Origin: Escherichia coli
GTDB taxonomy: Bacteria > Pseudomonadota > Gammaproteobacteria > Enterobacterales > Enterobacteriaceae
NCBI RefSeq assembly: GCF_965641715.1
Contig: NZ_OZ282453.1
DNA length: 64,000 nt
Reading direction: 5' to 3' (one strand)
Positions 3,001 to 15,000 of the stretch are shown here, piece after piece. The stretch's first letter is position 1; each line of letters starts with the position of its first letter. The position numbers are program-made.

Positions 3001-6000
3001 TGGTCTATGTGGTCCGGGCGGCAATCAACGACTGGGGCAATTTGTATATGTCCGAGACGCTGGGCGTCGATCTGGTCACGGCGAATACGGCAGTGACGAT
3101 GTTTGAACTGGGCGGATTTATCGGTGCGCTGGTAGCCGGTTGGGGCTCGGACAAATTGTTTAACGGCAACCGTGGGCCGATGAATTTGATTTTCGCCGCC
3201 GGAATTTTGCTTTCAGTCGGCTCGCTGTGGCTGATGCCATTTGCCAGCTACGTGATGCAGGCAACCTGCTTCTTCACTATTGGTTTTTTTGTCTTTGGCC
3301 CGCAGATGTTAATCGGCATGGCGGCGGCAGAGTGTTCACACAAAGAGGCGGCAGGGGCGGCGACGGGGTTTGTCGGCTTGTTTGCTTATCTGGGGGCGTC
3401 GCTTGCTGGTTGGCCGCTGGCGAAAGTACTCGATACCTGGCACTGGAGCGGTTTTTTTGTGGTTATCTCTATTGCCGCCGGGATTTCCGCACTGCTGTTA
3501 CTGCCCTTTTTGAACGCCCAGGCACCGCGCGAAGCGTGATGCATCTCACCTTTTCACTTCATATCCGGCAAAACTAAGAAATTTTCCAGGTTTTGCCTGG
3601 ACGCTATCTCAGGCCTGATTTGCTGCTGATTTTTACAATGCATGCCTCACGCAGGTATTCATTTCAGGAGTAACCCATGCTGGCTTTCTTAAACCAGGTC
3701 CGCAAGCCGACCCTGGACCTTCCGCTCGAAGTGCGGCGCAAAATGTGGTTCAAACCGTTCATGCAATCCTACCTGGTGGTCTTTATCGGCTACCTGACGA
3801 TGTACCTGATTCGCAAGAACTTTAACATCGCGCAGAACGATATGATTTCGACCTACGGGTTGAGCATGACGCAGCTGGGGATGATCGGCCTGGGTTTCTC
3901 CATCACTTATGGCGTGGGTAAAACGCTGGTTTCCTACTACGCCGACGGCAAAAACACCAAACAATTCCTGCCGTTCATGCTGATCCTGTCTGCCATTTGT
4001 ATGCTGGGCTTCAGCGCCAGTATGGGCAGCGGCTCGGTTAGCCTGTTCCTGATGATTGCCTTCTACGCCTTAAGCGGCTTTTTCCAGAGCACCGGCGGTT
4101 CGTGCAGTTACTCCACCATCACCAAATGGACGCCGCGTCGTAAACGTGGGACGTTCCTCGGTTTCTGGAACATTTCTCACAACCTTGGCGGTGCAGGCGC
4201 AGCAGGTGTGGCGCTGTTCGGTGCAAATTACCTGTTCGATGGCCATGTCATCGGCATGTTTATCTTCCCGTCGATTATCGCGCTGATTGTTGGTTTTATC
4301 GGCCTGCGTTACGGCAGCGACTCCCCGGAATCTTATGGCCTCGGCAAAGCTGAAGAGCTGTTCGGCGAGGAGATCAGCGAAGAGGACAAAGAGACTGAAT
4401 CTACCGATATGACCAAGTGGCAGATCTTTGTTGAGTATGTGCTGAAAAACAAAGTGATCTGGCTGCTGTGCTTCGCCAACATTTTCCTCTATGTGGTACG
4501 TATTGGTATCGACCAGTGGTCAACCGTATACGCGTTCCAGGAACTGAAACTCTCTAAAGCGGTGGCGATTCAGGGCTTTACGCTGTTTGAAGCTGGTGCG
4601 CTGGTCGGTACGCTGCTGTGGGGCTGGCTCTCTGACCTGGCGAACGGTCGCCGTGGCCTGGTGGCCTGCATCGCGCTGGCGCTGATTATCGCCACGCTCG
4701 GTGTGTATCAACATGCCAGCAACGAATATATCTATCTGGCTTCTCTCTTTGCGTTGGGTTTCCTGGTCTTTGGCCCGCAATTGTTGATTGGTGTGGCTGC
4801 TGTTGGCTTTGTACCTAAAAAAGCGATTGGCGCTGCCGATGGTATTAAAGGCACCTTTGCTTACCTGATTGGTGACAGCTTTGCCAAGTTAGGTCTGGGA
4901 ATGATTGCCGATGGGACACCGGTATTCGGCCTTACCGGCTGGGCAGGCACCTTCGCCGCACTTGATATCGCCGCGATTGGTTGTATCTGCCTGATGGCGA
5001 TAGTGGCGGTGATGGAAGAACGCAAAATCCGCCGCGAGAAAAAAATTCAGCAGTTGACAGTGGCATAAACGTAACTGGTGACTTTTGCCCGGCATGACGC
5101 CGGGCTTTTTTTATTCAATTTGACCAGATTAACGCCTGGGGGAGTTTTCCAGATATCATCAAAAGTTGATGCGCAGGAGAACGCATGATCTGGATAATGC
5201 TTGCCACCGTCGTGGTGGTGTTTGTGGTTGGTTTTCGGGTTCTGACGTCAGGCACCCGATGGGCGATTCGCCGTTTAAGCGAACGACTTAATATTGATGT
5301 TGTACCCGTAGAATCGATGATCGATCAGATGGGTAAAATGCCTGGTAAAGAGTTTTTGTATTATTTGCATCGCCCGGATGAATCTCATCTGCAAAATGCT
5401 GCTCAGGTGTTACTTATCTGGCAAATTGTGATTGTCGATGGTAGTGAGCAGAACCTGTTACGTTGGCATCGGTTGTTGCAAAAAGCGCGTCTTGCTGCGC
5501 CGATCACGGATGCCCAGGCCCGTCAGGCGCTGGCTTTTCTCCGTGAGTTAGAGCCAGATATGCAGGCGATTAATGCCTTCCAGATACGCTTTAACGCCCT
5601 CTTCCAGCCAGAAGAAGGCGTGTTTTGGTTGCATTAACTCAATGTGAGTGGCCTGTCAGAACCAGGCTTCCCACATCGCGCCAAGGTTAAAGTCGTCAAG
5701 CGTTTCCTCTTTTGTACCGTTGACGCGTGCAGTCCGGTCATTATCAACTTGCCCGCCCGTCATGTAGAAACGTAGCATTGGGCGGAATTCCGGGCCCATC
5801 GCAATAGAAATGTTCTGTGACAGCGTCAGCTTCCAGCCTGAATTATCTCCGCCTTTATCATAATCAACCCGTTGATAACCCGCCTCAAGCCAGGTGGAGT
5901 GAACGTCATTCCAGAAATACATAGGACGGACAATTACGCCATAGTTTTTGCGGTTATCACTCTTAATAGAACTGTTGTCGTAATCATGGAAGGCCAGTAA

Positions 6001-12000: not shown

Positions 12001-15000
12001 TCAGACAACATTATCTTTTCCCAGGCCTCGTCTGATATTGACGCTTGTGGAGTACATATTTTCCGTAAATCAGCTAATACGGTCTTTTTTTCATTCCGTG
12101 ACTTCCAGCGTGGTGAAGGCAAACTTCTCGCCATCAAATAGCCCCTGACTGGTTAGTTTCAGCGCGGGGATCACTGGCAGAGAAAGAAACGCCATCTGAA
12201 TAAACGGCTCATCGGGTAACGGACCGCATTCACGGGCGGCGGCTTTCAAGGCGTCAATTTGCTCGGCCAGCGACTGCGCCGTGTCGGTGCTCATCAGCCC
12301 GGCAATGGGCAACGGTAGATGACTTTGTACCTGGCCGTTACGTACCACGCACAACCCGCCGCCATCCTGAATCACCTGATTGACCGCCAGCGCCATCTCT
12401 TCGGCACTGCGACCGATCACCACAATATTATGGCTGTCATGACTGACCGTCGCAGCCAGCGCACCTTCATTCAGGCCAAAGCCGCCGAGCAAACCACAGG
12501 CCGGAGCCAGACGTTGCCCGTAACGCTCAAGTACGGCAATAAAGCACACATCATCGCGATCAAAACCATTTTCGCTGTAGACGCTGGAGCGGGAGTGCGT
12601 AATCAATTCGTTATGGATGACGTCAATGACCCGATAGCGTTTTCCGGGTGTAAATTGCTGGGCAAAGTCGCTGGCGGAAACTGGCTGACGGGCAATGGTA
12701 TTGCCATACGGCGGAGCGGATTGTGCCAGTCTCGCCGACTCTTCCGCCTGTAAGGTTTGCGCGTCAATCGGTGCGCCTTTCACCAGTACCTGCTGCACCG
12801 TGACCTTACGCGCATCGCTCAACAGGACGATATCAGCCTGCTTACCGGGTGCCAGTAAGCCCAGGTGATTCAGACCAAAGTGGCGCGCCGTAGACCAGCT
12901 GGCGACGCGATATGCCACATGCAGCGGCACATTGTGTTGTTCGATCAGGCGGCGAATTAGGGAATCGATATGCCCTTCATGGGCGATCTCCCACGGGTTA
13001 CGGTCATCAGTACAGAGCATGCATTGCGGGCTGTTAAATTCGTTGATCAACGGTGCCAGTGCGTTGAGATTGCGGGCAGCGGACCCCTCGCGGATCATCA
13101 ACGACATGCCGAGTTGTAATTTCCGGCGTCCTTCTTCCAGCTGATAACTTTCGTGGCAGTTTTCAATACCCGCGGCAATATAGGCGTTGAGTTCTTTACC
13201 ACCCAAACCCGGGCAGTGACCGTCCAGCGTCAGGTGGCGAAATGCATCCAGTTTATCGAGCAGCGCATTCTGCCCGCTAATTACGCCAGGGTAGTCCATC
13301 ATTTCTGCAAGGCCGGTAACCTGCGGATGGTCCCGCCAGGCGAGCATCTGTTCAAGGGTAAAACTGGCACCGTTAACATCGCAGCCTTCCAGAGCGGGCA
13401 CGCAAGAGCTGACCTGTAAGTACTGGTTTTGCCTTGCCTGTTTGGCACAGCGGGCAAACCAGGCGAATCCGGCTTCGCCCATCACGTTGACGATTTCATG
13501 AGGGTCGCAAATAACGGTCGTCAGGCCGCGCGGCAGAGTAGCGGTTTCAAAGGTGACCGGCGTCATCATGCTGGATTCAATATGCAGGTGAGCATCAATA
13601 AACCCTGGCACTGCCGTTGCGCCGCGGGCATCAATCCGCTGCAAAGCCGGAGCATCAGCGTATTCTGCGCCAACACCGGCAATGTAACGTCCTTTAATCA
13701 CAATTGGGCCGGAAATTTCTCCGCCATTGATCAGGTCGAGAATAGATACATTATCAATAATATAATCGGCAACAGCGTCGCCACGGGAAACGGCTAACAA
13801 TTCCTGGTATTCAGCCCGGCTAATGTGATGAAATTTATGGTTAATAGAATTATTCATATTTTTCTCATTTTGATTTTATCAATTTGATTATTATTTATCA
13901 TAAAGAAACGTCGCGAGATTATTAAAGAATATCCATTAATGTGCAATTGAAATGTGATAATTATCACTGAACCGTTGTTGTCATTTGTTTTACAAAAGCA
14001 AGGGATTAAATCTCCTCCAATGGACAAAAAAATGAATAATGACAATACCGATTACGTGAGTAATGAATCAGGGACGCTTTCGCGATTATTTAAACTACCT
14101 CAGCATGGGACCACCGTCCGCACAGAATTGATTGCGGGGATGACCACTTTTTTAACCATGGTGTACATCGTTTTTGTGAACCCGCAAATCCTCGGCGCGG
14201 CACAAATGGACCCGAAAGTGGTGTTTGTTACCACCTGTTTGATTGCCGGTATCGGCAGTATTGCGATGGGGATATTTGCTAACTTACCCGTGGCGCTGGC
14301 TCCGGCAATGGGGCTGAACGCCTTCTTTGCCTTCGTGGTCGTGGGGGCGATGGGGATCTCATGGCAGACCGGGATGGGCGCGATATTCTGGGGTGCAATT
14401 GGGCTATTTTTGCTCACGCTGTTTCGTATCCGGTACTGGATGATCTCCAACATTCCATTAAGTTTACGTATTGGTATCACCAGTGGAATCGGATTATTTA
14501 TTGCCTTAATGGGATTAAAAAACACTGGCGTTATTGTCGCCAATAAAGACACCCTGGTGATGATTGGCGATTTAAGCTCTCACGGCGTGTTGTTAGGTAT
14601 ATTAGGTTTTTTTATTATAACCGTATTGTCATCACGTCATTTTCATGCCGCGGTGCTGGTTTCCATCGTCGTCACTTCCTGCTGCGGATTATTTTTCGGT
14701 GATGTTCATTTTAGCGGCGTCTATTCCATTCCGCCTGATATTAGCGGCGTCATTGGTGAAGTAGATTTGAGCGGCGCGTTAACACTTGAACTCGCCGGTA
14801 TCATTTTCTCCTTTATGCTGATCAACCTATTTGATTCATCAGGAACATTAATTGGTGTAACTGATAAAGCTGGCTTAATAGATAGTAATGGTAAATTCCC
14901 CAATATGAATAAGGCGCTGTATGTTGATAGCGTCAGTTCGGTGGCGGGTGCGTTTATCGGCACCTCGTCTGTTACTGCCTATATTGAAAGTACTTCTGGT

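Follow-up and report, generated by a model that had tools for sequence, protein, structure and literature searches.

The 64,000-nucleotide stretch of Escherichia coli contig NZ_OZ282453.1 (assembly GCF_965641715.1) which was analysed here, and which is called the window in the following, covers the uhp-ade-yic-selC region of this species. From left to right it holds uhpABCT, a second copy of yicN (yicN'), a phosphotransferase system (PTS) module, a fragment of a second yicS (yicS'), adeD, adeQ, and the native yicN, followed by a helix-turn-helix (HTH)/RelE-type gene pair, nepI, an island of about 18 kb, the native yicS, nlpA, yicL, and setC. In the module, the genes of a porin, enzyme IIA (EIIA), a glycoside hydrolase of family 1 (GH1), EIIC, and EIIB lie on the minus strand and the gene of a LacI-family regulator on the plus strand. 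The subject of this work is the block from yicN' to yicS'. With a probability of roughly four in five it is derived from a deeply diverged version of the adeD-to-selC region, here called primed, from which a piece of 6,974 bp was inserted once between uhpT and adeD and then spread.

The limits of the block were obtained by reading the junctions of the window against the empty site of K-12-type strains, in which the convergent genes uhpT and adeD are separated by a spacer of 45 nucleotides. The empty site runs from the uhpT stop codon to ...GCCGGGCTTTTTTTATT/ATTCCGTGAC, which includes the adeD stop (a slash marks the junction here and below). In the window the left junction reads ...GGGCTTTTTTTATT/CAATTTGACCAGATTAACG... 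and the right one ...ACGGTCTTTTTTTCATT/CCGTGAC.... From this comparison the insert extends from position 5117 to 12090 and entered without loss of target bases. Aligned with the empty site of locus L003, it directly adjoins the uhpT terminator on one side and the stop codon of adeD on the other, its right end being ambiguous by three nucleotides (ATT). An earlier note on this DNA had given its extent as 5185-12137; the reading frame reaching 12137 turned out to be an artefact, a TTG-started frame extended into adeD. Positions 5069-5116 are identical to E. coli with an empty site, and the left end of the insert directly adjoins the U-tail of the uhpT terminator, which is left intact. This terminator forms the 3' end of the small RNA UhpU (PMC12704781); an Rfam search of window positions 1-40000 gave no match at the gathering score of a family, be it for UhpU or for another RNA. 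On the right side the adeD stop codon is now TGA (12091-12093), made of yicS'-derived bases, in place of the TAA of empty-site strains. What follows adeD on its 3' side is now the yicS' remnant and the hairpin between the LacI gene and yicS' instead of the uhpT terminator.

The G+C content of the insert is 47.0%, that of its flanks 50.7-55.2%. A repeat search and open reading frame (ORF) annotation detected no integrase, transposase, or terminal repeat in the block beyond the T-run/ATT microhomology. All its ORFs are accounted for by yicN', the module, and yicS', and the target is an intergenic terminator and not a tRNA gene. From the usual marks of genomic islands the block shows sporadic distribution, a precise empty site, and atypical G+C content, and has neither an integrase or transposase nor a tRNA target nor att repeats.

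The two genes bracketing the module are homologous to the native pair over gene length and not over short motifs. yicN' aligns with native yicN over all 453 nucleotides plus about 40 nucleotides of leader, with 78.8% identity of nucleotides and 84.8% identity of amino acids over 150 residues in exact pairwise comparison; the 85-90% returned by the aligner is a column-majority measure and not pairwise identity. The yicS' fragment aligns with the 3' 196 nucleotides of native yicS at 81.1% identity. The earlier note had described a complete, roughly 85% identical yicN paralogue with a similar leader on the left and a truncated yicS-like 3' end of similar divergence on the right, both oriented as the native genes. 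This stands in all parts except that the 85% is valid for the protein and not for the DNA. yicS' represents the 3' two-thirds of the gene, about 24 N-terminal codons including the signal peptide being gone. It scores 97.6 bits with the NCBIfam YicS model NF041639 (cut-off 45) without amounting to a complete protein. Its homology stops at the adeD stop codon; full-length counterparts of 97 amino acids occur in three Escherichia genomes described below (L004, L083, and L089). A domain of unknown function, DUF1198 (PF06711), is present on all 120 listed homologues of YicN', and NCBIfam contains no model for YicN or DUF1198. The protein cluster of YicN' holds names from E. coli only, and the next nearest proteins (Citrobacter, Salmonella, and native E. 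coli) are 84-86% identical.

Between yicN' and native yicN the ratio of non-synonymous to synonymous substitution rates (dN/dS) is 0.088 with a dS of about 1.2. Among alleles of yicN' it is 0.52-0.70 (12 and 9 non-synonymous changes, each against 5 synonymous ones), and L083 and the carrier L084 have in-frame deletions. Judged from these sequences, yicN' would be a redundant, drifting passenger and yicS' is probably dead. About 40 nucleotides 5' of the yicN start lies a motif, GTTTCC[A/C]GATATCATGAG, which is conserved from Escherichia to Lelliottia and Leclercia (window 15380-15418 and 5145-5184; loci L005-L074) and may be a promoter or regulatory site of yicN. A literature search located nothing on this locus, on the function of YicN/DUF1198, or on strain SCPM-O-B-8794.

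The module enclosed by yicN' and yicS' is intact, with all six genes and two operator-like palindromes. EIIC is above the curated cut-off for the lactose/cellobiose family (Table 1). The GH1 protein clearly belongs to its family, with all equivalog and subfamily models below cut-off (PRK13511, for example, with 355 against 610 bits) and weaker matches to the 6-phospho-beta-galactosidase and 6-phospho-beta-glucosidase subfamilies. The best NCBIfam LacI-family match of the regulator reaches 101.2 bits with a cut-off of 340, and its orthologues carry the Pfam domains LacI and Peripla_BP_3. A palindrome like TGGAAACCGGTTTCCA is found in the IIB-LacI spacer of 70 out of 70 comparable loci from many genera. 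The module genes are constrained, with a dN/dS of 0.01-0.10 overall; carriers compared with L089 gave 0.03-0.06 for the porin, 0.07-0.10 for GH1, 0.01-0.03 for EIIC, and 0-0.03 for LacI. These features suggest a working uptake and cleavage system for a beta-linked disaccharide or an aryl-glycoside, which would be controlled by LacI-type repression at the two palindromic operators.

Table 1. Features of the inserted block and of its surroundings in the window.
Feature	Position	Strand	Evidence and remarks
uhpA, uhpB, uhpC, uhpT	58-5068	+	ORF annotation
uhpT rho-independent terminator	5087-5116	+	Terminator scan; hairpin GCCCGGCATGACGCCGGGC plus T7-ATT; left target flank
Inserted block	5117-12090		Alignment to empty site in L003, junction strings, G+C content
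yicN' leader	5145-5184	+	Homologous to native adeQ-yicN spacer; motif TTTCCAGATATCAT conserved across genera
yicN'	5185-5637	+	Intact 150-amino-acid DUF1198 paralogue of yicN
LamB-family outer-membrane carbohydrate porin, 459 amino acids	5656-7035	-	NCBIfam maltoporin subfamily, E 3.8e-38 (below cut-off); Pfam LamB on orthologues; RefSeq
PTS EIIA, lactose/cellobiose family, 100 amino acids	7235-7537	-	RefSeq annotation of identical protein; Pfam PTS_IIA on orthologues
GH1 (phospho-)beta-glycosidase, 465 amino acids	7534-8931	-	TIGR03356, 416.7 bits (cut-off 478.5)
PTS EIIC, lactose/cellobiose family, 443 amino acids	8952-10283	-	TIGR00410, 367.4 bits (cut-off 236)
PTS EIIB, lactose/cellobiose family, 104 amino acids	10296-10610	-	TIGR00853, 92.6 bits (cut-off 110); RefSeq
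Perfect 16-bp palindrome TGGAAACCGGTTTCCA, putative LacI-family operator	10664-10679		Sequence
Second operator-like palindrome TGGAAAATCGGTTTCCA, near-copy of the first	10788-10804		Sequence
LacI-family regulator, 318 amino acids from ATG (330 from TTG at 10866)	10902-11858	+	NCBIfam LacI-family matches below cut-offs; RefSeq
Hairpin GACGTGAAGC-TGCG-GCTTCACGTC, putative bidirectional terminator	11872-11895		Between convergent LacI and yicS'; conserved in L004 and L001
yicS' fragment, pseudogene	11895-12090	-	NF041639 profile positions 25-96 of 96; RefSeq marks it incomplete
Right junction	12079-12095		...ACGGTCTTTTTTTCATT/CCGTGAC; yicS' through CATT, then adeD resumes
adeD (adenine deaminase), right target flank	12091-13857	-	NF007457, 1259.7 bits
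adeQ	to 15366	+	ORF annotation
Native yicN, directly 3' of adeQ	15419-15871	+	Annotation and alignment
HTH (MqsA/NadS-like) and RelE/ParE-type toxin-antitoxin pair	15987-16653	-	Between native yicN and nepI
eip/eaeX island in native nepI/yicS interval	18268-35836		NCBIfam matches; PMC7058095
Native full-length yicS, 97 amino acids	36138-36431	-	NF041639, 129.1 bits; alignment

In a collection of 5,426 complete E. coli genomes the block was present in 25 (about 0.5%), each time as one piece including the junction on the uhpT side. The hosts and backgrounds of these carriers vary, their identity to the block of the window is 98.3-99.6%, and within the block they differ by up to 1.7%. The junctions are identical in L002, L084, L087, and L091, and the right junction also in a displaced copy in the genome LH50-c. 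As both junctions are the same in every carrier, the filled sites go back to a single founding event. The copy in LH50-c (L001; NZ_CP100500.1, 8949-15568), 96% identical, stands elsewhere in the chromosome. It lacks yicN', but its truncated yicS' is still joined by the identical right junction to 183 bp from the 3' end of adeD, from which it is evident that this copy was lifted out of a filled uhpT/adeD site. A SPATE-type peptidase, xylA, GH43, and IS3 accompany it in a composite island, and the 3' half of its porin gene is a different allele (about 70-80% nucleotide identity; 86% of amino acids overall). Two partial matches, H56 and H57, were considered as intermediates and rejected, as they are carriers with IS1-mediated deletions. 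In 14EC033 (L085; 6588-8374) and CUWW06 (L086; 6588-8158) yicN' and part of the porin gene are kept up to an IS1 inserted in the porin gene; from there a large deletion extends as far as tnaA or mdtL and takes the remaining module with it.

For comparison with other genera the LacI regulator was scanned against one genome per species, and marker genes were mapped on 80 loci. In Citrobacter sp. MGH106 the order is adeD-adeQ-yicN-nepI-[module]-yicS-nlpA-yicL, and C. sedlakii has the same order without the ade genes. Lelliottia, Enterobacter, Leclercia, and relatives show uhpT-yicN-nepI-yicL-[module]-yicS...nlpA, and Kosakonia, Pseudescherichia, and Phytobacter yicN-nepI-(yicL)-[module]. In Yersinia, Serratia, Erwinia, and Pantoea the module stands in unrelated contexts. 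Since it is found beside these genes across Citrobacter, Enterobacter, Lelliottia, Leclercia, and the Kosakonia group, the yicN...yicS neighbourhood is the usual home of the module in the Enterobacteriaceae, and presumably the ancestral one. A module without porin is plasmid-borne in Pantoea agglomerans (L062). A 272-bp low-coverage contig of the Paenarthrobacter aurescens TC1 assembly (L077) encodes 94% of the first 100 residues of the LacI regulator and is probably a contamination of this actinobacterial assembly.

The earlier note had postulated a lineage in which this PTS operon occupies the slot between yicN and yicS, and such genomes exist within Escherichia. The species-representative genome L004, labelled E. 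coli, has the order uhpT-adeD-adeQ-yicN-[module]-full yicS'-yicL' and a block 95.4% identical to window positions 5146-12095, the identity being 92-93.6% in uhpT, adeD, and adeQ and about 90% farther downstream. Its only yicN (4282-4734) is a hybrid, with about 400 nucleotides of E. coli type followed by some 55 nucleotides and a porin spacer of yicN' type, which indicates a homologous crossover inside this 453-nucleotide gene. Two further genomes, L083 from a public sequencing run and L089 from an independent metagenome assembly, are 99% identical to each other and read uhpT-adeD-[285 nucleotides with a degenerate adeQ 3' remnant]-yicN'-[module]-full yicS'-yicL'-rhuM-selC. They contain a single copy of yicN, and their block is 97.9-98.0% identical to that of the window; the comparison takes in the whole of yicN' and, from position 5145, its leader. 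In the window, L083, and L004 alike, yicN' adjoins the porin gene directly, without nepI in between, by the same junction. In ilvBN the identity to K-12 is 95.9% for the window-type carrier L084 and 95.0% for L083. With adeQ deleted in L083 (9719-10000) and L089 (627-911), about 240 nucleotides are left between adeD and the yicN' leader, and the short stretch beside the leader is CCCCCGCAC in place of the CCTGGGGGAG of the window, a difference that has the look of a hairpin variant or a small inversion.

From these genomes it can be seen which state came first. The empty junction CTTTTTTT(T)ATTATTCCGTGA is common to typical E. coli, L083, and L004, so the filled uhpT/adeD state is derived, in agreement with the proposal of the earlier note that the block was pasted between uhpT and the ade genes. 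The slot copies cannot descend from the arrangement of the window because their yicS' is of full length. The sequence relationships point to a donor within the genus Escherichia which carried a deeply diverged haplotype of the region. In this donor the order would have been adeQ'-yicN'-[porin-IIA-GH1-IIC-IIB / LacI]-yicS'-yicL', with the operon in its ancestral place. A linear fragment bounded by the adeQ' stop codon and approximately codon 25 of yicS' would then have been joined into the uhpT/adeD spacer by illegitimate, microhomology-assisted ends. Later the filled allele would have been passed between E. coli lineages, or replaced in them, by homologous recombination in the uhp and ade flanks.

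At the right join CTTTTTTTCATT of the donor faces CTTTTTTTATTATT of the target. As the full-length yicS' of L004 reads ...GGTCTTTTTTTCATT/TGCCG..., this join can be placed in an ATT beside a T7 run which donor and target have imperfectly in common: from donor GGTCTTTTTTTCATT/TGCCG and target GGGCTTTTTTTATTATT/CCGTGAC the product GGTCTTTTTTTCATT/CCGTGAC results, with a short common sequence at the point of joining. On the left side the homology to the native locus begins at about the adeQ stop codon (GATTAA against GATTAG), and the remnant of the adeQ 3' end 5' of yicN' in L083 counts for an origin from the slot. Neither the nepI/yicS junction of K-12 nor the borders of the eip island yielded a relic of the module; only yicS itself matched there.

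Several observations do not fit this explanation smoothly. An intact adeQ'-yicN' junction with the window-type leader (...CAATTTGACCAGATTAACGCCTGGGGGAG) occurs in none of the sampled genomes, and as L083 differs 5' of window position 5145, the left join cannot be read base by base. A search for the left context of the donor with divergent YicN' variants (P0001, P0003, P0004, P0019) and a metagenome DNA scan with the leader led only to window-type or L083-type loci. The nearest named proteins of YicN' reach just 84-86% amino acid identity. The blocks of the window, RMDEC465, and L083 diverge in a star-like manner (98.3-98.6% identity) and the carriers are not clearly set off as a clade from the slot copy, although a single event without later recombination predicts such a clade. 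In addition, the window flanks show no donor-type gradient beside the junctions: a sliding-window comparison with K-12, L083, and RMDEC465 over uhpABCT and adeD-adeQ-yicN yielded only mosaic variation of 95-100%.

Across the module the window, RMDEC465, and L083 differ by 1.4-2.0%, compared with 3-7% in uhpABC, adeD, and adeQ. As the block is more uniform than its flanks (98.0-98.6% against 92.6-97% identity), it must have crossed lineage boundaries after these lineages had split, most simply by homologous recombination through the flanks. The founding event was not recent, given the nearly star-like divergence and the differences among the carriers. The left boundary of the primed haplotype also moves: in L083 and L089 the divergence starts in the 5' part of adeD (87% identity, about 96% in the 3' part), in L004 inside yicN, and this difference indicates active homologous exchange at the locus. 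A side observation concerns the wider region. In uhpABC (window 58-3539) the identity of the window to RMDEC465 is 94.8%. Strain-to-strain differences of 2-5% in uhpABC and ilvBN (ilvBN in L083, L084, and L088) are high within a species and suggest frequent imports in this region.

The same findings lend some weight to a different course of events, possible but clearly less probable than insertion into E. coli, in which the rearrangement arose inside a primed-type genome and E. coli received the finished arrangement by homologous recombination in uhp and adeD/adeQ. There, adjacent segments [adeD-adeQ] and [yicN'...yicS' 3'] would have been swapped, for instance by a tandem duplication at T-run microhomologies with subsequent deletion. 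In such a genome only about 3.3 kb would separate the target uhpT/adeD from the left end of the block, and the two T-run motifs would form direct repeats at a distance of about 10 kb. The uniform, star-like block and the shifting left boundary fit such an exchange, and so does RMDEC465, which is filled and yet has its closest uhpABC relative in L083 (97.0%, against 94.7% to other carriers). On the other hand, none of the sampled genomes has the insertion beside a primed-type adeD' and adeQ', the route takes two illegitimate steps plus a transfer instead of one insertion, and adeD and uhpT of the window are ordinary E. coli alleles at the junctions.

It is improbable that the filled arrangement was ancestral to E. 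coli and was deleted in nearly all lineages, although the divergence of the carriers and their varied hosts and backgrounds would agree with great age and short imperfect direct repeats at the block ends could mediate a deletion. A deletion between CTTTTTTTATT and CTTTTTTTCATT cannot regenerate the empty sequence TTTATTATTCC; that sequence is, moreover, shared by L083 and L004, whose module stands in the slot, yicS' is truncated in the window and complete in the slot copies, and only 0.5% of the complete genomes are filled. Even less credit can be given to a direct import from another genus such as Citrobacter. The closest named modules outside Escherichia are indeed those of C. sedlakii, Citrobacter sp. 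MGH106, and C. amalonaticus (92-93% amino acid identity in LacI), which stand in the slot. The tree of GH1 follows the species tree, however, with 98.3% nucleotide identity to L083 and 96.9% to L004 and only 81% to Citrobacter as the next; Citrobacter has nepI between yicN and the porin gene, where the Escherichia copies have the direct junction; and its YicN is at most 86% identical to YicN'. That yicN' and yicS' are old paralogues from a segmental duplication within the genome, with the operon inserted between them later, would account for their orientation and similar divergence but is effectively refuted, since a dS of about 1.2 is at odds with the absence of the second yicN from 99.5% of E. 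coli, since yicN' and full yicS' are the only copies in L083/L089 and already flank the operon there, and since the order yicN-module-yicS is common to other genera.

How the insertion into E. coli, which remains the preferred explanation, obtained so divergent a donor piece leads to the depth of the primed haplotype. Neighbour-joining placed yicN', yicS', and yicL' as deep sisters of their respective E. coli alleles (76-81% nucleotide identity), branching at about the depth of Citrobacter sp. MGH106, while the neighbouring uhp and adeD genes of the same genomes are 92-97% identical to E. coli alleles. The haplotype comprises the 5' part of adeD, adeQ', yicN', the module, yicS', and yicL' and reaches to selC, with 76-87% identity to the E. 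coli alleles. Because of this step from 92-97% in its surroundings, and because no named genus has a YicN above 86% amino acid identity, it could tentatively be regarded as the sole trace of an unsampled genus-level relative, or as an ancient trans-species polymorphism beside the selC hotspot, from which rare E. coli carry a relocated fragment. Both ideas are speculative and, at present, rather unlikely.

The slot itself has received different cargo. In the window the nepI/yicS interval holds a 3,511-amino-acid inverse autotransporter of IatC/EaeX type (a giant adhesin), a HilA/EilA-type regulator, a SicA-like chaperone (eicA), and SipD-, possibly SipC-, and SipB-like eip proteins. This content matches the selC-B/eip locus (eicA, eipB/C/D, eilA, eaeX) of enteroaggregative E. 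coli 042 and of sequence type 69 (PMC7058095). The eip locus occupies the same interval as the PTS module in Citrobacter but is unrelated in content (effectors associated with type III secretion, and an adhesin) and is no part of the relocated block. The suggestion of two alternative cargoes for one junction is thereby borne out; in K-12 the interval measures 40 nucleotides. The HTH/RelE pair between native yicN and nepI is also found in the carriers L002 and L087 and not in a K-12-type reference, where the yicN-nepI gap is about 210 nucleotides.

E. coli is known to have strain-specific chromosomal islands that were acquired by horizontal transfer and lack mobility genes, as well as presence/absence polymorphisms kept up by homologous recombination in the flanks. 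The block resembles them in its sporadic occurrence, precise junction against an empty site, lower G+C content, metabolic cargo, and spread via conserved flanking genes. It differs from them in that it carries recognisable pieces of its former flanking genes, which make its origin and breakpoints directly readable, and in that only 10 kb separate it from its source locus in the same region of the recipient. For naturally transformable bacteria, illegitimate recombination has been described that is facilitated by homology or mediated by microhomology. Foreign DNA, a right join at ATT plus a T7 run, and an undiminished target are features in common with this process, which the right join suggests for the block; no one-sided homologous anchor was recognised there. 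As to the cargo, the bgc operon encodes PTS IIB/IIC/IIA, a porin, GH1, and a GntR-type regulator. The bgl/Z5211-5214 polymorphism concerns another accessory beta-glucoside system of E. coli (PMC2646131). Like the module, bgl and bgc are lineage-restricted operons of a PTS with a phospho-beta-glucosidase, some with a porin, at fixed sites. The module is distinguished by its LacI-family regulator with TGGAAACCGGTTTCCA operators, the order IIB-IIC-GH1-IIA-porin, and another site, bgc being set apart by its description.

The locus is thus a well-resolved case of a known process, horizontal acquisition with scars from flanking genes, and not a new mechanism or kind of system. One former neighbour was taken along complete and the other in truncated form, and from these two copies one can tell where the block came from, where it was cut, and in which direction the event went. 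Some novelty lies in the question where the deeply diverged haplotype between adeD and selC originated. In annotation the second DUF1198 gene should not be treated as a functional duplicate, nor the YicS fragment as a gene. The nepI/yicS interval near selC emerges as a site of replaceable cargo, with the PTS operon in Citrobacter and some Escherichia, eip/eaeX in the genome described here, and nothing in K-12. About 0.5% of E. coli possess an extra, selectively maintained beta-glycoside uptake system, by which carbon-source phenotypes could be affected.

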